NCBI GenBank assembly: GCA_964645795.1
Contig: CAZYCL010000002.1
Span: forward strand, 272,352 to 336,351
Direction of reading: 5' to 3'
Length of the DNA: 64,000 nt
From: an uncultured Planctomycetales bacterium
Lineage (GTDB): Bacteria > Omnitrophota > Gorgyraeia > Gygaellales > Profunditerraquicolaceae
Shown here in pieces: positions 3,701 to 42,700 of this stretch. The position numbers and the translations under genes were made by a program. Within the stretch, counting starts at the first letter, position 1; the number at the start of each line of letters is the position of its first letter. The notes under the pieces are model-generated. The model was not told the origin of the DNA. It did not search any database and saw only the letters and a list, made by a program, of their open reading frames with translations.

Positions 3701-6700
3701 CTAGCGCGTTTTTTTAGCACTTTGTCTAGATACTCTCGCCCATTTTCGCTTAGAACAAACTGTTTTCCATTGTGGGCCTTGATAAAATCTGCGTTTTCTG
3801 CCCTATCAAACGATTCTTGCCAATGCCGTCTGGAATAATCAACTAGCTCTATCGATGCGCTGTGAAGCGGACGATCGGGCATAGTTCTTGCAACCTCGAA
3901 TAAAGCTTTCCTCAAAATCGACTCTACATTCTGAGGCCCATGAAGCCTAATCTGATTAAGCAGATAATTAATTTGAAATTTTTTCTCCGCATCATTCTTT
4001 AGCGAATATTTTTTGTATAATGGCGGCTCTATCCCGATAATAAAATCCCGCAAGCAGTTCAGCAATTGCCAATCGTCTTCGCAAACTAAATACGGGATCA
4101 TCCCCCAAAATCCTTCAAATACCGGGTTCCCCAAACAAACCGCTATCTTGTCTTCCTTCATGAAACTCTCTACTATCTGGCTTCGCTCCGATATACTGCT
4201 GGTCAACTTTATAGAAGACACCGGGAAATTCCACAAAACTTGCCTTTGCCAGCGCAGCCACTCCTGATTATCAAAAACCATTTTCTTAAATGCGTGGCGC
4301 ACTTCTTCATCTCTATTGCGCTTTAGTTTAAAAGCAGCTCCCTCTAAAGGCTTAAATACATGTATGAAATCAAAATCCGGCAAATCTCGGCGCAAATAAG
4401 TGAGCTCATCGATTTCTTTGCGCATAAACCGCATTAAAGACAAAAATCTGCGTGCAAGAGGGTCGTACATATTGCAGTAAAGCTGCCCTGCGGGAATTAC
4501 GGCGCTAATGAAAGAAACGGCGGCAAGTGAAAGGCCGATTTGGTTTGAAATATTTAATACATTGGACCTCTGTGAATCATCCCAACCAAGTGCTTCATAA
4601 AACGCATTCACCTTCTCAAGCACTTCGAATCCTGAACGACTAAGATTATCCTTACCTAAAATATTGAATATTTGCCGCAACTCATGCTCATCAATGCTTC
4701 TTCCGTCTAGCAGTAATCGCTCTAATCGATTAGCGTCTTTTTTAACTCTCCGTCTCAATGAATTTGCAGCTTTGTACCTCATCCCGGATAAGGGAGAAGA
4801 CCCTAAGAGTACTTTGCGACTTTGATCTTTAAAACTCGCTGGTTTCCTAAAAAATAGGTGTTTTATATCTTCGGTCTGCATGCTCAATTCCCTGATAATC
4901 TTCTTATACTTGGCCCCGTCTATTTGGTCATAAATATTCCTCATCAAAGAAATAATTTTGTTTTTGTCTTTGGAGGCGATTTCCCGCGGATAAGCGATAA
5001 AGAGTCCGGCGATAGTAGGAATGCCCGCTCGATAATTAGGAAGGAATGAAATGCTTTCGTGCCTGCGAGGAAATATATAGAGCCTGTCGGATGAGGAATA
5101 AAGATTGAAGGGTATCATTTTATTTTGCAGAGCTCTGATTAAAGCAAAGGCATGATTGATTCGTTGATTGGGATCGCTGCTTTCAACCACAAAAACTATT
5201 CCCGGGTAGCCTTCTAATTCGCCTACTCTAGTGCACCTATCCACAAAATAAGTTTTCAGCGTTAAGTTTTCAATGGGGAAGCTGCCCTTAAAGAGCTGAA
5301 AATGAAGACTTTCGGGCTTACTGGCCCCGGCACCTTTTTGGTTAAAATACCATTTACTTTGAGTGACTTCGCTTATCAGCGTCGCCAGCATCAAATCTTG
5401 GGCTGTAACCGGCCTATTCTCTTGAGTAAGTTTTAATATGAAATGGAAACTGAGATATGGACATTTATTCTTTAGTATCTGATAGGGCATATTATGGCAT
5501 TTATTAAGATCGTAGATCGGCTCTTCTTCAGGGATAGATTCGGATTGGATTAACCCCGTATTAACTGAATTTTTCTCCATAACTTTTTTTACAAGTAAAG
5601 GTTGCAATTGCACTTCGGCTGCGAAATTTTTGTTTACCTTGACGGTTTTCTTGATAACGCTTTTGCTGTCCCATGATATCAGCCCATTATTTTTAGCTTC
5701 CCTTAAGGCATTTAAGATTACCTGCTTTAGATTTGCTGATTCCAATTTTTTTCTTAGATCGGCCGTTCTCGAAGCTAAAACCGACATATCCGTTCCTTCC
5801 ACCGGCGAACTGGCGATTTTTCTCCTCCGGTACCCTGGCTTACCATAGAAAGCCCACAAGGCATCACGAGGATGCGCATATATATGATTATTGCCTATCT
5901 TGGATTCAATGCGCCCGTCGGTTCTTAAAACGCCGACATGACATAATGTTCCATTATCATTGTAGTAAACGACCAGATCTCCGGGCTTACTTTGAATCTC
6001 GGAGACCACTTCAAAATTACTGTCGATGATATCTGAGATCTCTTTATGGTTGCCTACAAGCTCGGGATAGTAGAATGCCCTCGCGTAGCTCAGGCACTGG
6101 CCGGCAAAAAACTCTTTGCGCATGACAATGGAAAAGCCCGGCCTAGAACCAAGGGCATCTGCATGCTCAATGTTCTTTTGCGAATTAACCGTTGCTGTTT
6201 TCTCATCCGCCGGAGAACTGGAAAGCCCTTTCACAAAACCGATGTCTTGCGCTAAGTGATTGCGGGTGCCAAGCAATATTACCGAATGTTCCGGATATCC
6301 AAGAAACTCCGTTAACACCTCTGCCTTTGGCTTGTTTTCGCTCTTTCTGATCACTGAATTAAGCACTACGGCTATGCCTTTTTGATTTAATGCCGCAGCT
6401 AAATCGCGTTGTTTCTGGAATAGCCATCCGGGCATCTGCACCGCATCAAGGCCGTCAAGTAACCCCTGATTAACCGCGGCTTTCAGCACGTCTTCCCGAG
6501 AGATGGAAGCCCCGATATATTTGACTCCGTATAAGTTACCTTCTTTGATGCGGGCCATAGTATTTATAACCCGGACATCGCGCAATACTTCTTCGGTCGC
6601 CCCATGGATATAAAGCAACTCAAAATTACCGAGGCGCTGAAAGCTTCTTTCTGCCGACCGCATGAGGTTTTGGCAGGTATGGTCTATTTGCGATTTGCCC

Positions 6701-9700
6701 TTATCTACAATGAACTCCTCCCCCCATTTTGTGGCAATGAAAGCCCTTTGTCTTAAATGCGGATATTTGAAAAAGAATTCTCCGATCCGCTTTTCGCTAA
6801 AACCGTAAGCCGCGGCTGTATCCAGCATTATGACCCCGTCTTTGTTAGCCATCCGGCCAAAGACGATGTTCAAATAATCTTCTATCTCTTCGGGTTCAGG
6901 ATAAAAGTAATCCTTATTATCCGCAGGCCACCTGCGGCCGAACCAAATTGTCCCGGCGCCTAAAACGAAAAATTCCAATCCTGTTTTTCCAAAATTCCGG
7001 TAAAGCGATGCCGCCGGAGAGCTGGCAGAGTCATCGGCTGTCGGTAAAGAACCGTTGTTGTATGAATTAATTTTCGCCAGGTCAATACCAATGGGAATAT
7101 TTTTTGGCAAAACGGGGACTTGACTTCTTTTGTCGTTATTAACGATCAAATCCCAGCGGATGTTTGCCTCTCTCATCTGTTGATGTATGGCAATCCACCT
7201 GGAAGCATATTCTGCATGGATCTTTCTAAGAACTTCGGGACTGATGCCTTCTCCATACGGGATTCCATGCTCCGCGAGAAATCTGTCATGAAATGCCGAT
7301 TCTGCGCTATAATCAGAACGTTCAACAAGAACATGAATATCCAATGTAATATCGTGTTCGACGAGCCAGCCCAGCGTGTGGACCCCTTCCACAACGATCA
7401 CCCTAGCGTTCTCTTTAGGCACGTAAGGGGCCAGGGCATTCGGGTCTTCTTCAAGATAGGAATTGATCTTATCCTCGGAAAGACCCAGGACATCGCTCCT
7501 GACAAGCAATTTCGAGAATGTAGTTTTGCCTACCGCCGGATAACCACAAATGCCCACCGCGACCGGGATCTTGCCTTCTTTAAGCTTTTCTTCAATCATT
7601 GTTTTTAATATTCTCAAGCCTTCCACTAATGAAAACGCCTTGAGGGGCCTGTTTTCCGGCGTCACCGGCGAGCTGGACATTATTTTATCGGCGACAACCG
7701 TCCAAAGCGGGTTACCCGAGTGCCTGCCCAATACATCGATCTTGCAGATTTTAAACCCATGCCTTTGGAAATATTTCCCGATCTCTGTTTCTGTATAAAA
7801 TAATTTGCTACGGTCATAATCAAGCTTGATATGCAAATTCAGTGAATCGATAATGTACTGCCTTATTCCTAAAGTTGCGGCCCTGCTGAATTTATTAAAC
7901 AGGTACATTGCCTCCGGGGAATCAACCGGCAGCGAATCAATATTGATTTTTTTCGAGCTTAGGTGGCATCGGAAAAAAGGCAGCAACTTACGATAAGTAT
8001 CTATGCTTATAAGCCAGTTATTCTGCGGGTGTATCATGATATTCACCACCCTGCCAAATGGCCGAAGAATACGGTTCAACTCTTTCCCGGATTTTTCCAA
8101 ATCCGTATAGCACCAGCTGTTTACCGAAAAAGACCCGTTAAAGTAGTCTGAGGGGTAGGGCGTATTCTCTATTAAGGACTTTACATGGATTATCTCTAAC
8201 CCGGCCCCCGCCGGAAGGCTGTCATTGGCTTCCAGGGTATGCATCTCTACCTCAAAGGGAAGGCTATTCTTTAGGCGATAGGCGTAATCGGAATCGCCGC
8301 AGCCTAACTCTACTAACCTAATCTTATATTTACCTTCCATGCTTGGGCTTTCCTGCATGCTGCTGGCGATAAAATGTATTATTTTATTTACCCCGGAATC
8401 GGCATAGCTTTCCCCGGAAGGCTGCTTTTTTTGCTGCTTCCCCCATGCGGACACCTTATCCATTTGCGCATCCACCGGCGAGCTGACCGGGCTGCTTACC
8501 CCTGCTTTTTTATCGCTGCCAAAAAGGGCCACGAATTCTCCGGAAGAAGAATAATAAGAGAGCTTTTTATCGCTTTTTCTCCATATGCCGAAAGAATCTT
8601 CGAATGATTTGATGATATCCGGGTATCTAGCCAGTTCTTTAAGCTGAGGGCCATTTCTTTTTATCGCCTTCTGGACGTCTCTGATATATCTTTGCGCATC
8701 CCCGGCATCAATTTCCAGATATTCGGCTATTTGCTGATAAGTTAAAGCATGGAAGCGTAAGATAAATGCAGCCTTCTTGATATTTCTAAGCCTCTTAACT
8801 TCAGCAAGCCTGTCCCATATCCTTTTACGTATGTAATGATGCTCAAAATCAAGCACAATAGCCCAGAGGCTCTCAATATAATCCCGAGTTTTATTCTCTA
8901 ATAAACGGTTAACCCAATAAAAGCAGTTATTGGAAGACTTTTCCGACGTCCCAAGATATTTCCCGATTTCCTTGTGTGCGATATATCTGAATTCATGAAG
9001 TATGAATATTGCCTTGCCCTTTTCCGATAGCCAGGGGATAGTATTTAACGCATCTCTTACCGCAGATAATTTAGGGTATTTATCCAATGGGGCAGAGAAT
9101 TGAGCTGAATCTCTACCCGCATATTTGATTAATCTTCTGGCACGAAATAACCTAGTTTTAATTGTCGCTACCGGCAGTCTTAACCGCGCTGCAAGCTCTT
9201 TATAAGAGAGGCCCTCAAAATACCTAAGGGTAATTACGCTCTTGTGCATACCTTTTAGATGATCTATCTGTTGACGTAAAATCAAAATTTTATCTATCTC
9301 GTCACCGGGTTCCTCACTGATCTCTTCCTGAATCTCGTCTATATCTTTGTATCTATTTATATATACCTTATTTCTATCGACCCAATTCTTTCTTAACCGG
9401 TCAATTCCCGTATAATAGGCTATCTTATAGAGCCAGGTCTGAAAATTCGCGGCCTGCGGGTTAAATCTATTTCCTTTTTCCCGCGTTAAGGCTATCTTAT
9501 TAAAGACATCCCCAGCCATTTCTTGGATTTCCTGATCAATAAATACCCCGTTAAACCGAATGTGATAATAATTTATAAGCCTGTTCCTGTAGCGGCTGAT
9601 TATTTCATCCATGCCTGCAACTCTTCCTTGATAAAACTTCTCCATGGAAATGGCGTCGATCGACGGGGAAACCGGAGAGCTGGTATTCCTTGTAGCCATA

Positions 9701-12700
9701 TCGCAGCCGACAGGAGAAACGGAAGAAGCTGCTGCTTCCCCCAGATTAACCCTGCCCGGGGCAAGAATACGCCCCAGTTGACTAGCGATATCGGTCAAAC
9801 TTTTGCTAAAAAGAGGAGATTCTTTCTCGAAAGTGGCCCAAAATCCGGAATCTGTCTGCCTTACGGATTGGATGACCCTGCGTAAAATCAGCGCCCCTTC
9901 GGGCAAAGAAGCAAAGCTTCTCAATAAAGTAAATATGAGCTGGTTGCGCCGCAGACAGCCTTCCAGCTCTAAAACATCATCCCAGCCGCTGACGGCTCCG
10001 CTATCCTTCATTTTTTCAAGTAACGATACGGCCGACAGGCAGCGATACGATAAAGGATTAAATAACTGGGCTTCCTTTACAAAGCGGCATAAGTCGCAGG
10101 ATGAATCCTGCTTCAGATGAAAATGGTCTGCCTGATGGATAATCGCGCTTATATCCTTTAGCAAAGAATAATCACCGATAAGATGCAGGCTGTTCATTAA
10201 AAGCATTGTCTCCAGCAGAGCGTCACCTTTGCCGTTAGAGTAAAACATGCGTCTGGCAAGCTGATCAGCTATAGGCTCCCTTTCTGCGTCCCATTTGTTT
10301 GCGGGTTCTTCGGATATATTCAGGCCGTCAAAACTCTTGTCTGCCCTGTCCAACAGGTCAAATGCAAACAACGTGTTTAATAGCTCCCTGCCTCTTAGGA
10401 CGCCATTGTTACCCGGACCGATATAGAACCGTAGCGCCTGAGAAGCCGCTTTTTCGGAGTCTTCTTCATTCACGACAACAGCCGGAACTCCGCCCTGATC
10501 CATATAAACCGCTACTGTTTTCGATGCCCCTTCGCCAAGATGATAAACCAGCTCTTCGATTCCTGTATTAAGAGTTATTCCGTTTTTCTCTGAAACGCGT
10601 ATGCCTTTTATCACCAGGTCCGGACCAAACTCATCCAAAAGCCAAGTCAAAGACGGCAATGATCCTTGGCAGTCAAAAACTAAGGCACCCTTCTTGTATA
10701 CGCGTATGCGCGGGTCCTGGATGACAACCGCTTCCTTGAGCGGTTCTTTGTGGTTTATGTGACGATCCCGGTTAACAGCGGCGCCAGGCTTGATTACTCT
10801 GTCATTGGCAACCCCCTTGTACTGCAGTGCCCAAGCATACTGAAGATCGGGATTTCTTGCCTTTGCGGTGCCGGTCAATCTGCGAGCCCGTACAACTCTA
10901 TTGCCCGTCTTATCATGCCTATTATTGCCTTTCTGGCCTGACTTATTATTTTTCTTGATTTCTGCCCTGATGCGGAGCTTATCTTCCCTGACGCGGAGCT
11001 TCTCTTCTTTAAGCTTTTCCCGCATCTCGTCTTTCGCCTTTCTCTTAAGCCTGGAGGCTGCCTGCGTATAATGCTTTTCAAACCTCCTTAAAACCGCTTG
11101 TTTTTGGATATAGCGAGCTATGCTTTCAACCCTGTAATTTATAAGCTGCTTGGTGGGAATAAGGTATTTTTTAATGCCCGCAGCTTTCAGTATTACGCTT
11201 ACCTCCTTTGCCTTTCTGAGCAAGTTTACCGGATCGGCGTAATGCTTGCCTTCTTGACGGTACTGCTTCGGAAAGGAATTGTAGTCGACGCCGAACTCGA
11301 TCAACCCTTCTATGGCCTGACGAACCTGCAATGCCTTCTTCTCTTCCTGGCGGAGTCTCTGCTGTTTCTTTTTCTTTAAATATTTTATTGCTGCGGCTAC
11401 GGTATGCCTCCTTAGCAAGGTAATGGTAATCTCATTCTTATCCAGATCATACCCCTCTATCCGTTTTTCAAGCTCGTCTCTTTTGCTGCATAAAGCCCAG
11501 GCGGATATATGGTCCTTGAAACAGGATGATACTTTGTCGAAATCTATGGCGTAAACATCCAAAAGCCTCTTTTTTGCGGCCTGCTGCCGGCATAAATCTT
11601 CTTCGATCCTTGCGATAGCCGCTGTGATCATTTTTACATGTGCATGCGCAGAGTACTTTAAAAGCGTATTCGTTGAAACCTTGTAATCACCAAGGCCTTC
11701 CTTCTCCAGCTCCGCCTGTAATCGCACTCTCTTCTCCAGCAGCCCTAGGGGGCTGATATAATACTTGCCGCCTATGCGCCGGTAAAATCCCGGTATAGCG
11801 TAATAATCAATACCGAATTCTTTGAGCGCCCGCACGACAGCGCTGTTATCATTGCCCACCGGTGAACTGATGAAGCAGCCGGGCCTGTGATAAACTTCCA
11901 CTCCGGCAGGCAGGTTCCCATTGATCACTCTCTCTAATTTGCGGAAGGTTAAAGAGACCTGCTGTTCCGGGGCGTTGGTAATGATGACCTGGGCATCGTC
12001 TTTCATCTCAGCCAGGAGCTTATCTTCCAATCTGTATTCCGAAAACGACCCGCTTTTCGTGTATAAAATAAAGTCTGTCTTGCGCAGGCTCACATTTTCG
12101 CCTAAGAAGTCCAGACAAAATATTTCGATCCTGCCGACCAAATTCTCCCAGCCTGCTTCTTGCCTAAGCCGCCGGATGATGGAGTGATTGTCTTCGACCA
12201 GGTCTATGTCACCCTCTAAGCCTACTGCGCGCTTTGCCCCAAAAGCTGCGACCATCGCCAACTCCAGACCTTGACCGCTACCGAGGCTAAATACAGTCTT
12301 TCCGCTGATATCAATAGCGTTAAAAACCCTAAGGAATTGTTCAAAAGCGGTGGCCTTAAAATGTCCGTAGGAGGTGATCTTCCCGGAGCCGCTGGTTAAG
12401 GTCAATTCTTCCGTGCCTAAATAATTATTGGCATAACCGCTATCGCCATAATATTTTCTCAAAGTTGACAATAAGGTCGCCCTTTGGCTGACATATGGAA
12501 AACCCACCGGCGAGCTGGAAAGCCTGGATTGCAATCTGGAAATCCCGCATGCCGCGCCGGCCACTGAACAGGTAAAACCGGCAACGGAAAGAACTATCAA
12601 CAACAGGCCTTTCCGGGCAAAATCACCTGCCCTTGCATCCATTAATGTGCCGTCGGGATTGAACCTATACAGGGCCAGCTCATTCTCCTTTATAACGTTG

Positions 12701-15700
12701 ACGTATCTATCCTCTGTGATACCCACATAAATATAGTTTTCATAAAATGGGTATTCAAACACCAGCTTGAATTCTTCTTCAAGTATAGGCACAAGGATAG
12801 CCCTAAGGAGAGCGTCTTTGGTATAGAATGCGTTGACAACCAAACCGGCTGGCTCCAAACCCTTGGATCTCAGGATTTCCGCCATATTCTTGACCAGCGT
12901 TGATAATTGATCCGCACGCATCCTGCCGCTATCCGCAGTATTAGGGCTGATATGGGCAAGGATCACCGAATTAACCGCCGCATTATTCATGCCTTTCATG
13001 ACCAAGGCAATACATCTATCAAACATGATGCGGTCGGTCTTTATCGCTGTGAGTTCCGGCACTATAAACATCCGGTCTTCTTCCACGAGCCCGCCAATAC
13101 CCCAAGGCCTCTTGTTCTCATCCAAAAGATCGTAACCTTGAGCAAAAACCGGATTAGATAACAATAGTGCATACAGTAATATTACCAGCCGCAAGGCCGC
13201 TTTAAGACCCGGTACCGGAGAACTGGCGCCGGAGTCGACCAGGAATATTTCGGGATTCCTTTCGATGGGGCCTAAAAGCTCATGATAAAGGAGCTCTTGC
13301 TGTTCTATGGGGAATAATTCGAAGAAGTAAGGATTTATTCGGAGAGTCCTGGCATTGATATCGCCTAAGGCGATACCTCCTTTAGTGGAGTGTAAATCGG
13401 TGGTAATAACAAGCGACCTATCGGATATCTGGGGAGGGGCGTGGCCGAAGAATGCCTTAAGCTCTTCCAGCCGTTTGCTTAAGATGCCCTGGTGCTCCTT
13501 GTAAATAAAGCCTTCCGGTCCGGTTATTAAAATAAGGTCGCTGACCGCAGCTTGGGCCAGGAGCCGGTTAATACCATACTTTTCTTCCATATTTTTCTGC
13601 TCTTCAAGCGGTACATAGAGCGGGTGTTCGTTGGCTTTATTAAGACTATTCTTACGCCTGCAGAATAACTCATAGTTGACGTGATTATAACGCACCAGGT
13701 CCCTGATCCCGTTAGGCAGCGGATCGCCAGGCCCGCCTATCAGATAAGATAAGATATTATAGACATCGTCTCTTCCAAAATGAAGGTAGTAATCCACGTT
13801 TTCAAGGTCTTGGACGGACGATTTGTTGCCGAGGACCAGCCGCACAATGGCGGCAATAGGATCATTCTCGTTAACGCTGCCTTCCTCTTCTACAAAACGG
13901 ACAAAAGATAACAGGTCCTCCCATTTTAAGTCCTTGAACGCCTCTGCCGTGCGCAGGTTAAACCAGGATATGTGCCGCATAAGGGCTTCGCTGGAATACT
14001 TATCTGTGTTATTTGCCTGAAGGGAATTAAGATAAAAATCAGTTATCGCCTTCTGGAGCCGGTCAAATGCTTGCTGTTCGGCAAGCTTGAAGAACTCGCA
14101 GTAGAGCTCACTGGCATCGCTTACCGGCAAACACAGCATCTTAACCGCATCAACACCTTGTTGCGATGACTGCAGGACTTGCTTGCCTTTAGCAATGAAA
14201 TCCTTACGCACGTGCTCAAATGCATATACCACCATCCGCGGCTCCAACGGCAAAATAACCTTTAAGCAGTTAGCGCAAGGGCGAAGCGTGACATAAAAAA
14301 TCCCGCCCTTAAAGGGATTGCCGGATAAAGATAGTATCCTTTTAAACAAGGCCACTCCTTCAAAAGAATCAAACAGCTTATCTTTCTGGATTATACGCTC
14401 TAACTGCAGCAGGCCCTCTTTGTATTCGAGGCTATCTTCCGGCCTGACATTTGAGGCGAGCTTATTCAGGATATCAAATACCAGCCTGATCTCTGCGTGG
14501 GAGTGCGTGCCAACGGTGTTGACTTGCGAGCCTGCGTATCGCCCTTCTGAATCATAGAACGAAGCGGCAACGGTTGCCGGCGGGAATGACGTTATTTTAG
14601 ACTTAGCCCAAAGGACCAATGAACGCAGTATCATTATCTGATGTTTATATCCGGGCTGGCCGGTATTCCTGCGGCCCTTAACCGGCGAGCTGAATTTGCG
14701 CATTACTTTTACTGTTGTCGGATGGTGGAACCTGTATCCCCAGTCGATGTCGTCATCGTCGTAAGGGCTCGGGCAGTATTCAAATCTGTAAGAATACGAA
14801 TAATTTCCCGTTATATGGCGATAATCATATGGCCTTAGCGCTTTAGCAAATGCATTCCTATAACCTAACGGCAACCATTCATTATCTACCGTATAACCTT
14901 TTGCCTTTAAAATGGGCGTCATATATTTAGAGTCCAGATTATTTAATAATAAATATTGTCCGGGATCGATGGTATTTTCAAGCGTATCGATATATTCGGA
15001 TAACAGCTTGATATGCTTCTTTTCTACCATTTTTCCGTGCAGATAAGAAAAGGCATATTCAATTAAACCTTTGCATAACACAGTTGCTCTTCCTGTCTTT
15101 ATAAAATCATTTATCAGTCCGGCTAGCGCTTCTTTATCATTGATCTCGGAGTTTGTATACAGGAGAGGTTCTTTCCCGATAGGCTGCCCTACTTCCCTTT
15201 CCATGAAACCAAACATGGCCTTTCCGCCCTCATTGTCCCTATTGAGGTAGGCTGCCGGGGCATACAAGGAAACAAAACCGTCCACTCCCGCCGCCGGATA
15301 GATCACTGTCTGGCGCTCAAATACCCTGCCGAGCCACAAAAGCCTGTATACTGCCCCGGTAAAAGGAATGATCCTTCCAGGATTGCCATCGCGGCTGTCT
15401 CCCAAACGCATTATGCTCATAACTGATTCCAAATCATCGCTTGGAAAAGATTTGCTTTTTTGAATCGGTGAACCGGCTTCGGCGACAAACCTTGTTTTAG
15501 CTTCGCTAACCGCGCGCCTTGGATTAATTACCCTGAAATCATAGCCTGCAAGGATATCAGCGGTCTCCTGTATGATCTTAATCGCCTCATCTTTGGTCAG
15601 GGCGGGATTTACGGCGAACATCTCAAGCAACACGCCCGCCACCTGCGGAGCGGCAAAGCATGTCGCCTGTCTGTAACGCTTCTCTCTCTTGTGCATACCC

Positions 15701-33700: not shown

Positions 33701-36700
33701 ATAAATACCGTATCTTCTGTAATCCGATGATAGGAAACCAGGGACTCGAGCAACTCTTGCTTATCCTGCCGTGACAAAGCAACGTAATTAGCTTTGCCCT
33801 GCCGCAGGAAGGTATTTATAAGCCAAACAGTATCCTTTCTTGCCTTGAATTTCTTAAGTAACCCGAGGAAACTCTTGCTTGTCTTTGCGCTGATGAGGTC
33901 GGTAATCACGGGGAAGGCGGGGTTAGAATCCGGAGAGATAAATGCCCCCTGAAGGAAGAAGGTGCGGTCGGTTGCGGCCTGCGGAGAACCTTTGTTCAGC
34001 CCTGCCTTAGCCAGATAATCTTGGAAGGCGATATTGAACGCTTCGTATTCGGATAATCTGGAGCCCGATTTCCTGGAGAGGTTCCTTTCAATATATAAAT
34101 CCATAAAACCCTGCATGAACAGATTAAGCCTGTTGTAGCCTTCGATAACCTCTTTTACATAAACCATTTTTTCTTTGGCTTCCGGAGTTTTCCCGCTCTT
34201 GATAAGATTGGCGACATAACCTACTTTCTGGCGTAATGAAGCAAGCTCCGGCTCCCGGCAGTATTTGGTTATCCTCTTTGAATTAAGGAACCCGAAGCAT
34301 TTGCCCAAGACAGCAGCGAAATCACCCTTCTCCATCTCCGTAATGATGTTGTTTATCCTGCCTAAAATTTCATCGTATATTTGCCCGGCCTTCTGCCTCA
34401 GGTCCTTTATGCGCCCCTTGTGGATACGCTCATTGCTTCTTGCTGCCTGCAAGCCTCTAACTTTAGCCAAGGCAAGGCTTATGCCGAAGATCGTGCGGCT
34501 TGAGCGGAAATGGCCGATATTATTCAACTCTATGGCAAGGAACAGGGAATCGCTTAACGTTTTATTAGCCTCCAGTTTATCCCCTTTAAGCCTACGCCGG
34601 ATTGAATCAAGCTTTTCGTTCATGGCCTGGACTTCTTCCCGGCTGAACTGCGGCTGCGCTCCCTTGTTTTTCTCCGTTTGACTTAGCTTATTTACCGCTT
34701 CGTCGAGTTTTTTGCCAATACCAATCAGCCCTTCATGCATATCCCTTAGCATATACAGTGTATTGAACCCGCTTTTTATCTGGTGGTCCTGAGACCTGAA
34801 TGCTTTCCGTAAAGACTTATACGGTCTTTTATAGTAAACTTTATAGATCACATGATCTTCTTCGTCCCTAACTTCGATTTTTATGTTCTTTCCTTCCAGC
34901 ACCAAGAACTCGCCGGTTTCTTCATCAAATACTACTCTCGAAGACATATAGCCGCTTGCGCCTTTATCCTTTATCAATGAAATAAGGTCATCGGCCAGGC
35001 GGTTGACCGCCGCTACCATACTGGCATTGGCAGCCGCGATATTATCATCCGCCAACAGCCTTGCTGCCTGCGAAAGCTTATCTTGGGCTTCCCGGAGCAA
35101 AACTGACCCCCGGAAGAAAGGCCGATAAGAAATATACTTGATCATGGCGGCGATATCTTGGATCTTCTTAGAAATCGCGGCTTCTGAGATGTCTTCTGGC
35201 GATACCGATCTTTTCACCATGGTTCTTTTAGCGCCCAGCCATATCAGCACCATGTTTAACCGGGCCACTTTCTCCAGGTAATATTGCAACACCGGCTCAA
35301 TAGAACTAAAAGTCCTCTCGTATGTCTTGGCCGCGGGTTCTTTAACCGGCGAACTAACATTATCTATCTTATCAATCCTTCTCTGGTGCCGCCCTTCATA
35401 CGAGAATTCAGTATTTATGAAAATATCCGCGATTTTTTCCGCTCTTTCTAACGGCACAAACTTTGCACCCAGTGCCAGGATATTCGCGTTATTATGCAGG
35501 CGGGTAAGCTCTGCGGCCACCTCGTTGTAGCAAAGCGCGGCCCTTACTCCTTTGAACCTGTTGGCAGTAATGCTTATTCCTATTCCGGTAGTACATATCA
35601 AGATCCCGAAATCATACTCCCTGCTTAATACGGCGCGGGCAACGCTTTGGCCGTAATCGGGATAATCACAGGAGTCCTTGGAGTACGGGCCTGCGTCCTT
35701 GATACTATGGCCCCGCCCTGATAGATAACGTATCAATCCTTCCTTTAATTCAAATCCGCCGTGGTCAGAGCCAATAATCACGGATTTCCGGGTAAGGGCG
35801 TTCTTGAACATCTCGTATGAATCCTTTAATCCCTGCAAAGAAAGGTCGTTTTCCCGGAAGAAAGCCGAACCGGCAACAAAAATATTCACTCCGGCCTCCT
35901 GTGCCTGCCTTATGGTCTGCGTATTGATGCCGCCATCGATTTGGATCAACCCCTTGTAGCCGTACTTTAGGCGCAACAACCTGATGTTATTAAGGACCTC
36001 CCCCATGAACTTCTGCCCGCCCTTGCCCGGATATACGCTCATTTGTAAAACCATGCCGATATATTCGGAATGCAACCGGATAAACTCTCCGGCAGCATCA
36101 ATGTCCGCATCAGGGTTCAAGGCCAGGCCGGCTATTGCCTTATGTTGATTTATGAATATCAGGCGGCTAAGCAACAACTCCTTATTATCAAACGCTTCCC
36201 AGTGAATGGTGCTGATCCTTGCCCCTTCATTGGTATAGCTTTGGATAAAGGCCTCGGAAGGCTCCATAACCATTTTGTGTACATCAATCAAAGAGCCTTC
36301 AGGTAGCCCGGAAATAATACTCCTTAAGAGCCGAGGCGTTAATTCTCTCACGGTGTCTTTTGCGCCTGGCTGGACTATTTTTGAGCCTTTCCCGCCGTTG
36401 CTGTCGATAACGTCAAAATGAACAATAACGGGAATATCCTGACCGTGCCCGATCCGGACCGCCTCTTGTGCCTTAGCAATCCTTAATTCAGAAGGGACGT
36501 TTAAAATGGACGGGGCAAGGATATACCTGGAGCTTTCGCCTCTTGTCGTTACCAGGCTGGCAACCGCAGAGCTGGTTCTTTCGCTAACCATCCTCTCCAG
36601 GATGCTGTTTATCTCACTGGGATACTGCGATACACCGTCAATAATGAAATAAACCAGGAAATCCTCCATGTTGCTGTTACCGGCGTACTTCTTCGCTATG

Positions 36701-39700
36701 ATATCTCCGATTTTTGCCCGATTTTTGCTATCCGGATCATTTAACAGGGTATGCAAATTATTACTTAAGGGTTCGGCGTTAAGCTCTGTATTTTCCTGCG
36801 CTTCAATCGCAGGGTTACGCCTATCGCAAGCAAGGTTTGTTTTGCGATTCATAGCTGCCATATGTTCTAAAAGATCATTAACCTCCGCTGGGAAATTTGA
36901 TGAACCGTCAATTATGAAATTTACCAGCAGCTCTTCGGTATCTATGCCGTGAGCGTACATCCGGGCTATGATATGAGCGGTTCTTGCCCTTGAGCGCTTG
37001 TCCATACTGTTGAGCAGGCTCAACAACACATTCTTTGTAGTCTTGACCGCAAACATCCTGTCCCTGGGGCTTTGCAGGCTCAGATGCGCAAACGCATCCA
37101 GGAAATTAACCATCTTATCACTTATCGTTTTCCGGTCAGCTATCTCTTCGTAGAAAAACTGAAAATTGTTTTCAAAGCTGTGTCGATATATCTGACAGGC
37201 GATTTTCAGAGCGGACTTTGCTCTTCGTCTCTTAAAGTTGAGCAGGGTGTTTAAGAATTTATCGTCCATATCGTAGGCAAAATATTCGTATACCCGGTTA
37301 GATACGGGGCTTGAAATAAATGCCATCTCCAGGGCAATACGCCTGACTATCTGGTCGCGCTTTGATTCCCCATCAACGCTGACTACCTTAACCCCGCGTG
37401 ATGCCAATGCCTGCTTTTGCGGCAGGGAGAAACTTCTGAAGTTATACAACCTTTCGGTCAAATAATCGAAAGAAATGTACGCGTCCCCTTTTTCGTAGAT
37501 CTTCCTGCTATAACGGTTCAAAATATTACCCTCTTCCAGATCGACAAAGAACGCGCTCTCAAGCCTGAAATCTGAATTCTTCATTATTTTATAGAAGGTA
37601 TCGATCTCTTCTTGACTGGAAGGAGAAAGCCCTATGAGAAGCCCTTTCTTTACTTTCAACTGCCGCAGAGAAGACTGAAGATATATGGCGCAAAAAGTAT
37701 TGATGCTAATATAGTAATTCCGGGAATCCCTATCTCTTTCTGAGCGTATATGTTCATAAACTAACTTGGGCAGAGAAACAAAGCTCCAGCCCGTGGCCTC
37801 GGCAACCATATTGCAGATCGCCATTCTTCCGGAGAACTCCGGGATGAATATTACGCAATAAGGCTTGCCATGACCCTGGACAGGTGAGGCTGACTGCCTG
37901 CCTTGCGCGCGCATCAGGCAGCCGAGAGGGGAGCTTGAAGCTAGCGAACTCCCAAATACGATATAATTCCTGCTTATTTCCACCTCCAACTCGCTTAACT
38001 CTCCAAGCCCCCAGTCCTCATCGGTCTCGATATTACATAAGATGTTACCGGTCAGCGCAAAGCCGATCTCATCGAGCATTCTCTGATAGCCTTCGGGGAG
38101 CAGGCTTTCCTTTCTCTTAATTTCGTCTATGGTGCGTCCGAGGATCACCAGGTATCCGTCCTTCTTGAGGAATTTGGCCGCTGCCTCCAGCAGCCTCCTG
38201 CAATCCGCTTCCTCGAAGAATAACAAAAGGTTGCCTATGGTAACTATATCGAAGTGCTCAAGAGCGGAATATGCTTCTTTGAAGCTGTACTCCAAAGAAA
38301 GGACATCCGAATTAAGCAGCCGCAGCTTCTGCCCTGGCTGCATACAGGCATCCAGCCTTTCGCTTGTCCATTCAAGCATCCCCCGGGATATATCCACTCC
38401 CGTGACCTCTGAGGCTCCGTATTTGAAAGCGAATTCGGCTATCATCCCGTTCCCGATAGCCAGATCCAGGATCTTCGCACCTCTCGTGATTCCCATCGGT
38501 ATGGCTTTCTTAAATATAAGCTCTGCTGCCTCCCGTACCTTATCTTTTGTGCCCAGGTCATACTTTCTTTGCGCGGCATAATTATCATATTTTGCCTTCA
38601 GCGCCTCAGTGGCCCAGTCATAATCCCCCAAGCCCATGCGTAAAACACCTGACTTAATGATCTCTACCCCCAGCGGATCATGGATTTCTTTAACCGGGCT
38701 TGAGCCGGCGCCTCTTTTGCTCCTGATATAATCCCTCCAAAAATGCCAGCCCTGCGAAGGAAGCATGTTATAGTTCAGCAAACCCTTTATCAACTGCGGC
38801 GCAAGATCGCTAAACTGCCTATATTTATGGCCTAATTCGAAGGACATGCTTATGAAATCGCAGTCAAAACCTACCTCCTTGGACACGTACTCCTCGATAG
38901 CCGCGGCAAAATCTTCATCGCTTGCGGAGAACATCTTTGCTTTTGAGGTATTCAAAATCTTGAACGCAGAATCGCATTTTTCCAATATCTTATCCGGGTT
39001 TTCAATCGGCAAGAACCCGGCGAATGGCCGGTTGCGCAATTTCCAGCCTTCAATCTTGGAATCAAGATAGCTCTGCCTGTAGAAATTCGCTATTAAAGGC
39101 AGGCTGAAAAATATATTAGTATCCTCGTATTCGATCTTGCTTTTCCTTGAAATCACGGGCCACTTAAGGGGATCTACCTCTTCATCCGTAAGCCTGCTAA
39201 AAGCCCTGGCAACTGATAAAAATGACATTCTGTGAAGCTTCGAGGATATTTCATTTTTCGAAGAAGCAAAAACACCGCTTATCTGGCTTCCCATTACGTA
39301 AAACCTTTGGGCTATCGTATCGACCAAATTTTGCTGCTGCTTAATGTCAAAGATATTCCTGCCTGCGCCATAGTCATAAACGCCTATCTCGAACAAGCCG
39401 CAGATCACCTGAATAAGTATTGATTGCTTAAGCAGGTATTTTTCATCCAGAAGCTGGTCCAGGGATATTTCAACGATCTTATCAAAGAACTCCGACTTTA
39501 GAGGCTTCTCGATAAAGAAATCTACCGCCTCCAACTCCTTGCCGATGAACTTCAGCTCGACACTGGAACACATAATGACCTGGCAATTGAAATCTTTCTT
39601 GGCTATCTTGGCCAGGGCCAAACCGTCTATCTTGGCGAGCCTGACATTAGTAACAAGTATGGACTCCGGATGCTCGCTTATGATCTGCCTGGCCTCTTCC

Positions 39701-42700
39701 CCGTTAGACGCCTCAATAACCATTAAGTAAGGATATTTCCTTCCCAGGATATTACGTACTAAAAGGCGCGAGTAAAAATCGTCATCGGCAATGACCAGCT
39801 TGGGCTTAAATGCCGCATCAAGCGGCGAACTGGAACTGCCCTCGGCGGCCTTCAGTCTCTGCTGATAACCTTCTTCGATCTCCCAGACGATGTCCAATAA
39901 ATAAGGCTTCCTGGCTACGAGGTTGACATTGAAATCTGCGAAATACTGTCGGTCGTGTCCCTCAAAGTCGTAATAAGGATGCATAAAAGCCCTGAACCAC
40001 ACCGCCGCTAACGCCTGCAGCTGCAGGGAATGATAACGCTCCATCTGGATATTCTTGAAAGCCTTATACCCCAGCCGGCCGTGGGCCTTAAAATACCTCT
40101 GCGCTGCCGTCTCAAGCATAAAGAGCTTCTCAAAAAGCAGCTCCCGCGCCTTTTCAGGCCAGACTTTATAAAGCTTATTCCACCTTTCCAGGAAATACGG
40201 GTTTACGATGATCTCATAGACATCTTCTTTCTTGCCTTTTAACAGGTGGACGTAGAGCATGTGAAAGGCATGATGAACATAAGGTCTGCGTTTGTAATCG
40301 AAATGGATACGGGGGGTCGGGATGCGCACCGGTGTATATACCTCAGCGGATATCCGAATCCACTCTTTGTTTTGCTCAACATAAGATTGCCCCGTTGGGC
40401 TCGATTCATAAAAGCGCAGAAAATCGCTTACTACCTGCAGGAAGGCAGAGCTATAATGTCTGGAGCTTGACTTAAAATGCGGATACAGCTTGCGCAAATA
40501 AGCCCTCTGCTCTCCTGTTATATACCTCCTGCGCGCGATCACGGGCGAGCTCAGGCTTGTGCTAGGGTCGATTATCTCCGGGGTCAGGAGGCTTGACTTA
40601 TTGTCCCATTCGCTGAACAAGCTTACCTTAATATATATCTCGCCAATGGGCAGGTCCAGCTGGCGCCTCATTGACAAAAGCAGGGATTCGAACTTCCCGG
40701 TATCGGAAAATACCGGGCGCGTAGTCTCTTCGAATATAACAAACCCGGCTTTTCTTAAAAGCTCTTCGAGGTGGCCGGTTGTCCTTCTGCACGCCGAAGC
40801 AGCCTTATCAACGTGGAAATCATGGTCCACCCTTTTTACCAGAAAATCCCTGCATCCTTTCAAGAGGGCTATAGCACATGATATATTCACCAGCATAAGG
40901 CCAAAGCCGCGCCGCCGCTGGAAGCTGCTGATCTCTATGCCGACATGCTCGTTTCCCGTATAGACACTGTCATCGGCAATAGCCGTCTTCGCTGCCGCGT
41001 CAATGAAGAAATACCTGAACCCTATGCGCCTGCCGCGGGAGTACAACTGAAGCAGGATATTCTCCCGGCCTTCAGCAGCCAAATATGAAGACAAGGTTAT
41101 CGAGAACTGCTCATCATGCAGCTTAATAGAGACTCTTCCTGTTGATATCAAATATCCGGCTATAAGCTCGGTTGTGTTTACGGGAGAAGATGCCTCGTGA
41201 TCTTCCTTCCACCAGACGCCTTTTTCCTTAAGCTCTCTCTCCGAAAGCACCTCGCCTTTCCTGCCGATAACACGGTTGGGCATACTCAAACGCACGCTCT
41301 TTATGATAAGCGCACCTTCTTTTTCCGGGTCCTTGCCGAATATCCTGGGGCACCCTTGCCTAAGCTGCAGGATCTTTTCACCAAGCTCATTATCATGCTC
41401 GGCAAGCTGCGGCATATAGGTGATCGCTGAGGTAAGAAGCTTTAGGAGCTCCATGAACCCGAGCTTGCCGTGATCAAAGAAGTACTGATTGAATTTGTAG
41501 CGGGCGCCCAGCGCAGGGTCAATCTCCAAGAGCTTTCTGAATAATAGCGACTTGTCGGTGATAGTATTGCCTCTTACTTCTTTACAATCGGAAAGCCTGA
41601 ACTGATCCGATACCGCGATATTAACGTAGCCGCGCATTACTTTCTTGATCGTCCTGCGCTCATCTTTGATGTTTATCTTTTCCAGCATCCTGTCGGCTGT
41701 CTCCAGCAACAGTTCGCGTAAATACGGAGGCCTTTTAAAAGGAAGGTAGCCGGACAAAAGGATGATAATACTGCCCTTGGCTTCGTTAAGGCAATACTTC
41801 TGCCAGGCCGGCAATTCTCTGTCAGGCTTTATATCGGCGGCATATAAAGCGAGGTTGTCGGATTTAATGCCCTCGATGCTCCTGAACCCGAAAACAGAGG
41901 CGACATTATGTTTGACTGCCGAAATAACCGTGCTGTAAAACAGGCGCCTGGCCTCTTCCCGCGCGTCCGGACCGACGCTTAACTTATTATCCAGCTTCTT
42001 CCTTCTGTCCGGGCCCAAGGCTTCGCAGCCCTCCCACCATACCCCATTCTCCACAACTTCCTTGTCTCCAAAAGCGTACTCGGCATCAGGCTTATTTTCG
42101 TTCCTGATAACATACTGCTTCTTGGCTACCTTGGAAATAGACGCTGCCTTTATTTTGCTCAGGGGTTTTTTATGCAGCCACTTGGCCGCTCGGATATGGT
42201 TGGCTTTCTGGACAGTAACCAATAACTCGCTTTTTCCCGCAACCAATAGCTGTACCGCCTTGCGGCCGTATAACTCGCCTAAAAGGGTGTCGTAGCCGTT
42301 GGAGGGCAGGCCTCTTAGGATATACCCCAATATGGAAAGGCGCACATTCTTCATTACCTCGCTTTGAGTCCCGTATCTTAAATCTGTCCCGAAGTAATGC
42401 GGATACCTATGCCTTATCTGCTTGTATAAAAGCGCTATGTCCTTATCAAAACCGGAAAGGCTGGGCAGATAACGTAGGGCCAAAGACAGGTACTCGGATA
42501 TGCCGGAAAGTTTAGGATTGCCGTGCGGATCCCTCTGCCCCTTGGAATGGAACTCCTTATCAAGGAAAGGAACTATTTTTAAGAAGTCGTAAAAAAGCGT
42601 ATTCTCGGATTCTCTGTGCGCAGGGCTAAAATCTTTAAAGTTATACCCTTCTGACATGGCTATGCTCAGATACCCGTTATAGAATATAAACTCCAGAGCG

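Follow-up and report, generated by a model that had tools for sequence, protein, structure and literature searches.

We analyzed a stretch of 64,000 nucleotides of contig CAZYCL010000002.1 (assembly GCA_964645795.1, positions 272,352 to 336,351 of the forward strand), which is referred to below, at its full length, as the window. It is occupied by the inner part of one giant gene, read from the minus strand, in which units resembling enzymes and regulators follow each other in a single frame. Our main finding is that a short peptide, SSP followed by V, L, A or I, recurs at the borders of these protein-sized units, and that a punctuation of the same kind, spelled differently from gene to gene, borders orthologous units in relatives. 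We designate this peptide the delimiter, and we consider below the possibility that it is a proteolytic processing site.

A single open frame spans the window

One frame of the minus strand, of 21,333 codons, contains no stop, whereas the other five frames contain 772-1594 stops each. This frame is open at both ends of the window, and its length is at least 64 kb.

1..64000, minus strand, uninterrupted reading frame, internal piece of a giant gene (stop count in six frames and translation)

Since none of the 21,333 codons is a stop, the read-through is genuine and spans the whole window, which is an internal 64-kb piece of a giant minus-strand gene of at least 21,333 codons; the N-terminus and the C-terminus of the gene both lie beyond it. 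Residues are numbered along this frame, residue i being encoded at window positions 64000-3i..64002-3i. The probability that the long frame is an illusion of assembly or annotation, or the effect of a reassigned stop codon, is in our opinion negligible. Besides the stop counts, every one of the more than 30 family matches reported below lies in the minus-strand open frame, no substantial tandem-repeat or low-complexity structure was found in the window, and comparable genes have been reported from many independent assemblies. The window was also searched for Rfam families, tRNAs and rRNA, and none was found.

The initial annotation of this DNA, made from the sequence alone, had quoted several peptides at motif junctions, giving no strand. 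All were found, on the minus strand: SASSPAAS-LYRNFGKTG at residues 18990 onward, SSSSPLDAAFKPK-LVIADDD at residues 8054 onward, SSPVDYSALGNCSVKG-IIFDLDGTL at residues 13726 onward, and SSAVASLVTTRGESSRY-ILAPSIL at residues 9143 onward, the delimiter of the last being one base from SSPV. The read-through from one module into the next that it described, with NPLWTVVADKIMSSSPVTPENRP at residues 18764 onward, agrees with the absence of stops. The pattern had been placed at 6220-39837; it is real there, but it extends over the entire window.

A short delimiter recurs along the frame

The tripeptide SSP occurs 67 times in the window frame, against 4.3 expected from composition (p about 1e-54), and SSPV occurs 31 times against 0.24. 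Strict delimiters, that is, SSP followed by V, L, A, I or M, number 64 and have the consensus [uncharged]-S-S-P-[V/L/A/I]. The position before the motif never holds a charged residue (0/64 versus a background of 26%), being mostly S, I, A, G or V, and the residue following the Pro is hydrophobic or Ala; no other conservation was found within ten residues on either side. In DNA, the pattern AGYTCNCCGGT is expected 0.08 times and was counted 20 times, each copy lying in frame on the minus strand. In nine extra copies, A, C or G replaces the first Ser, several of these being one base off the consensus, and the resulting 73 copies (64 strict and 9 variant or degenerate) were used as cut points between units. 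Residues 1-1847 (58459-63999) are almost delimiter-free despite at least four enzyme-like units.

Strict delimiters (window coordinates, strand, peptide with its preceding residue, residues of the motif)
58447..58458, minus, ISSPI, 1848-1851
57955..57966, minus, GSSPI, 2012-2015
55129..55140, minus, ISSPV, 2954-2957
54109..54120, minus, LSSPV, 3294-3297
53713..53724, minus, ISSPV, 3426-3429
53086..53097, minus, ISSPL, 3635-3638
52945..52956, minus, ISSPA, 3682-3685
52894..52905, minus, NSSPI, 3699-3702
51301..51312, minus, FSSPL, 4230-4233
51160..51171, minus, VSSPL, 4277-4280
50134..50145, minus, SSSPL, 4619-4622
49399..49410, minus, QSSPV, 4864-4867
48286..48297, minus, ISSPV, 5235-5238
47518..47529, minus, VSSPL, 5491-5494
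47191..47202, minus, VSSPL, 5600-5603
43927..43938, minus, SSSPL, 6688-6691
43357..43368, minus, SSSPV, 6878-6881
41179..41190, minus, ASSPV, 7604-7607, aligns with IAPPV of relatives P0001 and P0002
40540..40551, minus, LSSPV, 7817-7820
39820..39831, minus, SSSPL, 8057-8060
38692..38703, minus, GSSPV, 8433-8436
37924..37935, minus, SSSPL, 8689-8692
37303..37314, minus, ISSPV, 8896-8899
35344..35355, minus, VSSPV, 9549-9552
33604..33615, minus, MSSPV, 10129-10132
33181..33192, minus, ASSPV, 10270-10273
31639..31650, minus, CSSPA, 10784-10787
30364..30375, minus, GSSPV, 11209-11212
29737..29748, minus, GSSPV, 11418-11421
29551..29562, minus, GSSPV, 11480-11483
28702..28713, minus, ASSPI, 11763-11766
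28153..28164, minus, GSSPI, 11946-11949
27454..27465, minus, ISSPV, 12179-12182
25639..25650, minus, SSSPV, 12784-12787
24880..24891, minus, SSSPL, 13037-13040
24559..24570, minus, GSSPI, 13144-13147
23374..23385, minus, ASSPA, 13539-13542
22813..22824, minus, LSSPV, 13726-13729
22063..22074, minus, VSSPL, 13976-13979
21466..21477, minus, SSSPL, 14175-14178
20779..20790, minus, ISSPL, 14404-14407
19774..19785, minus, SSSPA, 14739-14742
19072..19083, minus, SSSPA, 14973-14976
18079..18090, minus, ASSPV, 15304-15307
17581..17592, minus, ASSPL, 15470-15473
16321..16332, minus, GSSPV, 15890-15893
16282..16293, minus, ISSPI, 15903-15906
14680..14691, minus, FSSPV, 16437-16440
13213..13224, minus, ASSPV, 16926-16929
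12505..12516, minus, SSSPV, 17162-17165
11857..11868, minus, ISSPV, 17378-17381
9670..9681, minus, TSSPV, 18107-18110
8485..8496, minus, VSSPV, 18502-18505, first of a doubled pair
8473..8484, minus, VSSPV, 18506-18509, second of a doubled pair
7663..7674, minus, SSSPV, 18776-18779
7012..7023, minus, ASSPA, 18993-18996
6208..6219, minus, SSSPA, 19261-19264
5800..5811, minus, ASSPV, 19397-19400
4789..4800, minus, GSSPL, 19734-19737
3667..3678, minus, ASSPA, 20108-20111
2920..2931, minus, SSSPM, 20357-20360
2488..2499, minus, VSSPV, 20501-20504
1669..1680, minus, ASSPA, 20774-20777
718..729, minus, SSSPA, 21091-21094

Variant, degenerate or decayed copies
63082..63093, minus, variant SASPI, 303-306
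60322..60333, minus, NGSPL, possible chance match or degenerate delimiter, 1223-1226
56500..56511, minus, variant SCSPV (TGT one base from AGT), 2497-2500
48673..48684, minus, TGSPI, possible chance match or degenerate delimiter, 5106-5109
44803..44814, minus, variant VCSPV, 6396-6399
43774..43785, minus, KGSPA, possible chance match or degenerate delimiter, 6739-6742
37879..37890, minus, variant SASPV, 8704-8707
36562..36573, minus, decayed SSAV (AGC TCT GCG GTT, one base from SSPV), 17 amino acids before the Rpe unit, 9143-9146
15463..15474, minus, variant AGSPI, 16176-16179
820..831, minus, variant ICSPV, 21057-21060

Some delimiters are doubled or stand close together (at 8473-8496, 16282-16332, 52894-52956, 53713-53742 and 37879-37935; for example VSSPVSSPV, SSPRGISSPV and SSPVGALVIIHGISSPI), leaving 'empty' units of 4-17 amino acids, perhaps tandem sites or the scars left by units that were lost.

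The delimiters border independent units

The 73 cut points divide the window into 74 units (median about 245 amino acids), among which only 4 paralogous pairs were found. Pfam and NCBIfam scans of the frame left about half of the units unassigned to any family. The content is biased toward glycogen and sugar-phosphate enzymes, methyltransferases, HAD hydrolases, TPR, peptidoglycan peptidases and a few regulators. Sugar and glycogen metabolism is represented by an alpha-glucan phosphorylase fragment, mannitol dehydrogenase, aldose 1-epimerase, GT5+GT1, a PFK-like unit, Rpe, RpiB and GH77. Other enzymes of small molecules comprise three HAD hydrolases, P-loop kinases, LOG, an aldo/keto reductase and a deaminase motif, to which about five S-adenosylmethionine (SAM) methyltransferases are added. 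A receiver domain, MraZ, ACT+HD and an extracytoplasmic function (ECF) sigma factor with regions 2 and 4 form the regulatory set, and the peptidases and cell-wall hydrolases consist of two M23 domains, an S8-like half-domain and a CHAP-like domain. TPR arrays and DUF4922 make up further units.

Domains and domain-like units (window coordinates, strand, description, residues)
63181..63999, minus, alpha-glucan phosphorylase-like unit, C-terminal part, matched in relatives P0008 and P0009, 1-273
61945..62973, minus, Mannitol_dh + Mannitol_dh_C, 343-685
61135..61737, minus, HAD hydrolase, 755-955
58537..59160, minus, uridine-kinase-like P-loop kinase, 1614-1821
58057..58422, minus, DUF3856/TPR-like domain filling unit 1851-2011, 1860-1981
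56572..57282, minus, TPR array, 2240-2476
55795..56139, minus, LOG / Lysine_decarbox, 2621-2735
54139..54834, minus, aldose 1-epimerase, 3056-3287
51601..52044, minus, SAM methyltransferase (Methyltransf_23), 3986-4133
45208..46734, minus, glycogen/starch-synthase-like GT5+GT1, within unit 5603-6398, 5756-6264
41191..43359, minus, PFK-like unit, homologous to P0001 and P0002 from delimiter to delimiter, 6881-7603
39490..39795, minus, response-regulator receiver, 8069-8170
38155..38472, minus, SAM methyltransferase (Methyltransf_25), 8510-8615
35857..36294, minus, ribulose-phosphate 3-epimerase (Rpe), 9236-9381
35365..35781, minus, RpiB, profile 1-138 of 138, 9407-9545
33304..33591, minus, MraZ-like, 10137-10232
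31975..32769, minus, ACT + HD_4, 10411-10675
30976..31599, minus, GH77 4-alpha-glucanotransferase, 10801-11008
24943..25266, minus, Peptidase M23, 12912-13019
22192..22785, minus, HAD hydrolase beginning 10 amino acids past a delimiter, 13739-13936
20980..21324, minus, PrmA/MTS-type methyltransferase, 14226-14340
19789..20052, minus, TPR ending 1 amino acid ahead of a delimiter, 14650-14737
15559..15993, minus, subtilase (S8)-like half-domain with Cys at the catalytic Ser (ATCFAAPQVAG), 16003-16147
14221..14331, minus, cytidine/dCMP deaminase zinc motif, weak, 16557-16593
9133..9471, minus, ECF sigma-70 regions 2 and 4, 18177-18289
8044..8310, minus, SAM methyltransferase, weak, 18564-18652
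7447..7557, minus, P-loop kinase (AAA_18, weak), 18815-18851
6352..6960, minus, aldo/keto reductase, 19014-19216
5812..6105, minus, CHAP/DUF7689 (weak), 19299-19396
5293..5520, minus, DUF4922, 19494-19569
2002..2274, minus, Peptidase M23, 20576-20666

The 35 Pfam best-stretch envelopes, together 21.5% of the sequence, are free of all 73 motif copies (random-placement p 2e-8). The gaps between motif and domain start are of 9 amino acids for the receiver, 10 for a HAD hydrolase, 5 for MraZ, 14 for GH77, 18 for the aldo/keto reductase, 19 for PFK and 9 for DUF3856, and those between domain end and next motif are of 3 amino acids for RpiB, 1 for a TPR, 6 for the aldose epimerase and 0 for the CHAP-like domain. 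Domains crossing motifs had been proposed at the outset as the observation that could refute the picture of separate modules; since no domain envelope contains a motif copy, the Pfam search does not refute it. The positions given for a Walker A (about 35 amino acids past a motif) and for methyltransferase motif I (about 50-60) also proved close to ours, 36 and 48-74 amino acids, respectively. As for the broader statement that the modules are complete, unrelated proteins, they are indeed independent protein-sized units joined in frame by a short linker, but some junctions are motif-free. The idea of ordinary genes connected by a common in-frame linker is essentially right, except that no trace of vestigial start signals was seen. 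Such starts were considered and rejected: Met occurs within 15 amino acids after a delimiter 12 times, against 14.6 at random positions, and there is therefore no hint of internal initiation. To speak of a bacterial proteome encoded as a single polyprotein was an overstatement, the content being biased and devoid of a ribosomal or replication core.

Base composition also changes from unit to unit. The G+C content at third codon positions (GC3) ranges from 0.31 to 0.65 per unit (chi-square 456 on 65 degrees of freedom) and jumps abruptly at delimiters (residues 1851-2014, 0.51; 2015-2499, 0.38; 2500-2956, 0.52; 3702-5493, 0.31-0.46; 12182-12786, 0.65), pointing to a mosaic origin or to differences in age between units. 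Two paralogous units without family match, at 49411-50133 and 53725-54108 (residues 4622-4866 and 3297-3428), are 52% identical over 117 amino acids, have in common the motif (H/Q)ERCGGH.WD.K and both end ...ISEQSSPV. Two transcription regulators reside inside the giant frame, the ECF sigma factor (9133-9471, with a second region-4 match) and the MraZ-like unit (33304-33591).

Orthologous units are bracketed by other delimiters in relatives

Residues 5491-6690, which hold the GT5 unit and its neighbors, were run exhaustively with HMMER against 1.84 billion representatives. This gave 221 relatives, many of which are multi-unit proteins of 2-7.6 thousand amino acids (kAA); relatives are labeled P for proteins and L for loci. 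Each of the large ones has its own strongly over-represented short motif: GARLA in P0021 (9 versus 0.04 expected), RSELR in P0018, P0045, P0076 and P0108 (7-8 versus about 0.01 expected), DGG in P0035 and P0041, SSPV in P0056 and, in others, RSEMR, RSEVR, RAEVR, RSEAR, RSEIR or GFGA. Multi-unit relatives with their own delimiter include P0018, P0021, P0027, P0045, P0076, P0085, P0107, P0108, P0130, P0035, P0041, P0012 and loci L086-L150. P0108, of 2,863 amino acids, is a complete gene in an ordinary neighborhood (L083).

The GT5 unit is flanked by two copies of the local motif, with none internal, in 14 of the 16 relatives examined. The bracketed span measures 680-1,060 amino acids in ten of them and 1,460-1,860 in four, the window unit having 796. 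Bracketing is clearest in P0012, with delimiters at 62 and 869 and homology over 79-854, and the stand-alone protein P0017 (779 amino acids, Met start) aligns with the window GT5 unit over nearly its full length. With P0001 and P0002 (1,430-1,634 amino acids, from other metagenomes), the PFK-like unit shares 53-54% identity, P0002 being a complete gene in an ordinary neighborhood (L001). The homology starts exactly at one window delimiter and stops just before the next, and at this second junction P0001 and P0002 have IAPPVQN where the window has ASSPVNT.

An independent locus of the SSP type was found in L082 (European Nucleotide Archive ERZ25039459 contig_38025, 348 kb), positions 1-26063, where SSP occurs 44 times against about 2.3 expected. 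In it, four large open reading frames (ORFs) follow one another with overlapping ends in different frames, an arrangement probably due to frameshift errors of a long-read assembly, and a 60-nt tandem repeat (TSARSASSPIISWENI, 7 copies) bears the delimiter. Three other searches were less productive: a word-indexed search with 4,963 amino acids of the window against 5.8 billion proteins gave no close relative, only unrelated TPR/SPINDLY proteins (P0005, P0006); a scan of a genome collection with generic PFK patterns from the PFK-unit alignment gave only ordinary PFK genes; and a chimeric query of 2,000 amino acids aimed at ten relatives returned only P0056 and P0108.

Judging from these alignments, orthologous units are bracketed by non-homologous, gene-specific delimiters. 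Because the same unit is bracketed by different lineage-specific delimiters (RSExR, GARLA, DGG, SSPV), the motif is a functional punctuation, and SSP[VLAI] is one dialect of a general and widespread lineage-specific punctuation system.

Putative export signals follow delimiters

Four units of the window open directly after the delimiter with a sequence that resembles a Sec signal peptide, as in SSPA-SLPKSFIRNFIPILLPVFMFGISASGASAQ.

27364..27456, minus, signal-peptide-like N-terminus straight after a delimiter, VNRIKAAVSVLLAGAFWAFTTSAAGQG, residues 12182-12212
18970..19074, minus, signal-peptide-like N-terminus straight after a delimiter, ASLPKSFIRNFIPILLPVFMFGISASGASAQ, residues 14976-15010
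16204..16284, minus, signal-peptide-like N-terminus of the S8-like unit, IVKSRVFCFFFAAAVFLAIQKAFPQ, residues 15906-15932
13129..13215, minus, signal-peptide-like N-terminus straight after a delimiter, VPGLKAALRLVILLYALLLSNPVFAQ, residues 16929-16957

A simple hydropathy scan gave 12 strongly hydrophobic segments in the window, and 15 with a slightly shorter scan window; 4 of these 15 begin at most 25 amino acids past a delimiter, against 8.6% expected (p = 0.03). The same holds for 11 of 72 hydrophobic segments in the RSExR class, against 5.8% expected (p = 0.003). In L086, three lipobox-type signals, ...LAGLAGC, ...AGVIGC and ...LGALGC, are found in units directly after RSEAR, at delimiters near ORF residues 867, 2213 and 2850.

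Selection acts chiefly on the peptide

The codons of the delimiter are variable. The nine RSELR copies of P0108 are written with varied codons, including switches between AGC and TCN, CGN and AGR, and CTN and TTR, and in L082 most SSP copies are spelled TCC-AGC-CCN, reversing the AGY-TCG-CCG order of the window. In-frame near-matches to AGCTCGCCGG have 20, 20 and 5 mismatches at synonymous positions versus 0-4 at non-synonymous ones, and 45 of 53 still encode SSP. Because codons vary and near-matches differ synonymously in this way, selection on the delimiter acts chiefly at the peptide level.

Codon choice is nevertheless biased at the delimiters of the window: the first Ser is AGY in 51/64 copies (background 38%, p = 2e-11), the second is TCG in 31/64 (background 12%, p = 2e-12) and the Pro is CCG in 44/64 (background 35%), giving the consensus C-AGY-TCG-CCG-G. 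Likewise, 193 RSExR sites in 29 independent metagenome loci (L084-L163) have the consensus CGC-TCC-GAR-RTG-CGG, the two Arg positions preferring different codons. These preferences may stem from concerted evolution or recombination between delimiters, or from a translational effect. An RNA hairpin at the RSExR sites, considered in view of a C/G preference at positions -1, 2, 11 and 14, was rejected, with pairing counts of 122 versus 116.5 and 107 versus 99.5 under independence.

Candidate proteases

Ten relatives with R-[S/A]-E-x-R or GARLA delimiters begin with a signal peptide followed by a conserved head of about 400 amino acids with invariant D-A-H, E-G and G-G-F-H (IQDAH..EG..GGFH); in P0108 it covers residues 45-440 (L083, 10001-18592). 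A second head type (HIGLG..IIYID) is present in P0008, P0009 and P0011, and neither type has a sequence match in Pfam, NCBIfam or PDB. An AlphaFold model of the DAH/EG/GGFH head, computed from a six-sequence alignment, had a pLDDT of 82.7 and a pTM of 0.76, and Foldseek with this model independently placed EreC, Bcr135 and ChaN first. The predicted structure assigns this head to the TIKI superfamily (Ere/ChaN/TraB/Tiki fold). Active members of the superfamily include the endopeptidases Tiki and RRSP and the Ere esterases, and have a conserved His-Glu pair (PMC6254334). The TIKI-fold head is hence a candidate protease for the RSExR/GARLA class, where it could cut at the delimiters. A metagenome scan with the head pattern matched at least 600 stretches, of which at least 336 were confirmed; among the matches listed, 53 head-bearing ORFs have at least 1,200 amino acids, and about half of these are strongly enriched in R-[S/A]-E-x-R, two others having GFGA. 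The architecture of this class (P0108, P0018, L086-L150) is like that of the window gene, but the motif is not, the window having x-S-S-P-[VLAI] instead of R-[S/A]-E-x-R.

Two other candidates were put aside. In the S8-like unit of the window, the alignment to subtilisins is limited to the C-terminal half, and Cys stands at the Ser position (ATCFAAPQVAG versus GTSMATPHVAG). A C39 'double-glycine' peptidase, which was looked for in the DGG-type relatives P0035 and P0041, was not found in those fragments; a connection to the C39 domains reported by West-Roberts et al. is a lead only.

The second head type bears on the start of the window gene. Its first unit (alpha-glucan phosphorylase-like, residues 1-273) is 49% identical to residues 661-965 of P0009 and 645-918 of P0008, which carry it right after the HIGLG..IIYID head. 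Because the first unit resembles one that follows a head, the gene may start some 660 codons, or about 2 kb, past position 64000, perhaps with another head type.

The delimiter as a proposed processing site

The most likely reading, to which we give an even chance, is that a processing endopeptidase recognizes the delimiter, which would make the giant precursor a polyprotein. A dedicated endopeptidase would cut the precursor at each delimiter and so release the individual proteins; those with a signal or lipoprotein peptide would be exported on their own, and enzymes and regulators would remain at the place of their release. The specificity of the protease would co-evolve with the delimiter, as in viral polyproteins. 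A more specific version is 'operons within one reading frame', in which ordinary enzymes, a sigma factor and secreted proteins or lipoproteins are made as punctuated precursors and cut by a co-evolving protease, the TIKI head in one class and maybe C39 or S8 in others; this we hold tentatively, at somewhat below an even chance.

Several observations weigh against cleavage. Direct evidence for it is given neither by the present sequence analysis nor by the two texts on these genes. West-Roberts et al. hypothesized it and discussed C39 or S8 domains, but stated that the cleavage points are unknown (bioRxiv 10.1101/2023.11.21.568195), and a 2026 preprint does not mention it, describing single membrane-anchored chains whose hydrophobic helices are membrane anchors (bioRxiv 10.64898/2026.06.07.730766). 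No protease of matching specificity was found in the window, where the M23 (two) and CHAP-like (one) domains are cell-wall hydrolases, and the signal peptide on the heads of relatives is awkward for the processing of cytoplasmic units. A purely proteolytic role does not predict the position-specific codon preference. Moreover, not every junction has a delimiter: mannitol dehydrogenase and HAD share one inter-motif unit, and so do Rpe and RpiB. Finally, an AlphaFold model of residues 6878-7816, across a delimiter, had a mean pLDDT of 49, too poor to judge the linker.

Alternatively, the delimiter could be an uncleaved linker or recognition tag in a single working chain, a membrane-anchored scaffold or 'coat', in which it serves as a hinge, a modification site (for example on Ser-Pro) or a docking site, and the internal hydrophobic segments are transmembrane (TM) anchors that alternate cytoplasmic and external units. 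Such a chain is the published reading (many TM helices, a topology of signal peptide plus TM, an extracellular coat), and it is in line with the N-terminal signal peptides of the relatives' heads, with the 12 strongly hydrophobic segments of the window and with the absence of cleavage data. We regard it as unlikely, albeit worth serious attention. A passive hinge needs no fixed sequence of 4-5 residues and would not be swapped at orthologous junctions for chemically unrelated, gene-uniform motifs (SSPV, APPV, DGG, RSExR, GARLA), nor can one modification chemistry suit all those motifs. Lipobox-type signals straight after delimiters make most sense with a free N-terminus. The embedded ECF sigma factor and MraZ are hard to reconcile with an uncleaved extracellular coat protein, and it is hard to imagine them working when tethered in a chain of more than 21,000 residues.

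A signal carried primarily by nucleic acid, that is, a site of about 11-15 nt of which the peptide is a by-product, seems to us quite improbable. It could be a microhomology or recombination site for the in-frame capture, loss and shuffling of gene-sized cassettes, or a signal in mRNA or translation (pausing, or peptide release without a stop codon), and it would accommodate the synonymous codon preferences at the window delimiters and the 193 RSExR sites, the strong GC3 heterogeneity between units (0.31-0.65), the empty units of 4-17 amino acids between doubled delimiters and the reported pairwise divergence of giant genes between genomes. However, near-matches to the DNA consensus vary synonymously and keep the peptide, L082 uses TCC-AGC-CCN for the same SSP[VILA] peptide, P0108 writes RSELR in many synonymous codons, and sequence conservation ends beyond about 12 nt; there is no covariation for the possible hairpin, no Rfam match and no start-codon enrichment past delimiters. 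Nascent-chain release signals such as 2A peptides need far more than four residues, a requirement of which the delimiter falls far short. Very little credit can be given to a functionless fusion relic, in which stops and starts were lost and the motif is a composition-favored, low-complexity Ser/Pro linker. The units do resemble whole genes, signal peptides included, and Ser/Pro-rich linkers are common between domains, but one exact tetrapeptide is 15-fold to >100-fold in excess, charged residues are excluded from position -1, the same motif stands in different codons at the independent locus L082 and the gene-specific motifs of relatives have quite different compositions, all of which argues for selection on the sequence itself.

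Comparison with known systems

By size and domain repertoire, the gene matches the 'multi-enzyme' type of giant ORF described for Omnitrophota, and its host would belong to that taxon. Giant ORFs of Omnitrophota have been reported as an 'Archaeovorin' type (West-Roberts et al. 2023, bioRxiv 10.1101/2023.11.21.568195) and as a 'multi-enzyme metabolic' class (bioRxiv 10.64898/2026.06.07.730766). Like them, the window is one ORF of tens of kb (at least 64 kb versus a criterion of >20-30 kb) with GT5, GT1, SAM methyltransferases, TPR, HAD, receiver, sugar-phosphate enzymes, S8 and other peptidases; poor conservation between genomes and a proposed cleavage into smaller products are also common points. 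In contrast, the SecA-DEAD/preprotein-binding and NUDIX domains were not found in the 21,333 residues of the window, although they could lie outside, and where those ORFs have numerous TM helices, a simple hydropathy scan of the window gave few strongly hydrophobic segments (12), several of which look like signal peptides after delimiters. Neither text contains a junction motif or the words polyprotein and linker, 'motif' appearing only in one cited title, and a full-text literature search for the delimiter strings gave nothing relevant.

The MARTX (multifunctional-autoprocessing repeats-in-toxin) proteins of Vibrio and relatives are also very large, with exchangeable, unrelated effector modules whose content varies by recombination, and these modules are released by proteolysis in inter-module linkers (PMC6254334), a step that in the window is conjectural. 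The MARTX effector RRSP has the TIKI fold, as does the head of the relatives. Unlike the window, where Pfam revealed none of these features, MARTX toxins have an internal cysteine protease activated by inositol hexakisphosphate (InsP6), RTX repeats and type I secretion; they are of 3.5-5.3 kAA, whereas the modules of the window number dozens, are mostly of housekeeping type and have a defined delimiter motif. Viral polyproteins (picornavirus, potyvirus, nidovirus) have a junction consensus that is cut by a cognate protease and is uniform within a genome and lineage-specific. The window and its relatives likewise show a gene-uniform, lineage-specific short motif at the junctions of independently folding units, but the window gene is cellular, 5-10 times longer or more, and made of metabolic and regulatory modules, and its cleavage is conjectured. 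In the polyproteins of Euglena and dinoflagellates (light-harvesting complex, RuBisCO small subunit, peridinin-chlorophyll protein), tandem proteins are split by a short conserved linker that a protease removes; there, in eukaryotes, the same protein is repeated, whereas the window units are mutually unrelated (4 paralogous pairs among 74). Integron cassette arrays resemble the window in their unrelated gene-sized cassettes, recurring site, fast turnover and mosaic composition. Their attC sites, however, are imperfect inverted repeats of 60-140 bp between separate genes, whereas the delimiter covers about 12 nt, is in frame and is conserved chiefly as a peptide; no attC-type inverted repeat was seen, nucleotide conservation around the delimiter ends at about 12 nt, and the units lie in one stop-free frame.

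Significance of the delimiter and common ends of relatives

Giant genes of 20 to >400 kb are common in Omnitrophota, and their cleavage points have been stated to be unknown. While the gene class is already known, the delimiter system, short, gene-uniform, lineage-specific, bordering units and extending beyond the window, appears to be new. From the delimiter, the exact ends of dozens of products can be predicted for each gene, and a rule is gained for splitting giant proteins prior to annotation and structure prediction. The delimiter further suggests that internal 'TM helices' serve as export signals of single units and that duplicated marker domains in giant genes are separate proteins. If cleavage is true, the system would be a cellular counterpart of viral polyprotein expression and would provide a cleavage map of Omnitrophota giant proteins, many 'transmembrane helices' of which would be reread as signal peptides of the products. 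The codon preference of the delimiter could point to a second role of the site, in in-frame module shuffling or in translation. Orthologous units with different lineage motifs indicate a widespread, unnamed bacterial class of punctuated multi-protein precursors, and one such class also has the TIKI-fold head and an [A/S]-A C-terminal tail.

As regards this tail, 34 of about 154 relatives end in ...[A/S]-A-COOH (AA in 22, SA in 12) after an amphipathic stretch, most of the others being cut by contig ends. Such ends are found, for example, in P0108, P0009, P0011, P0017, P0045, P0085, P0001 and P0002, and look like a common tail signal or an ssrA-like 'AA' end.

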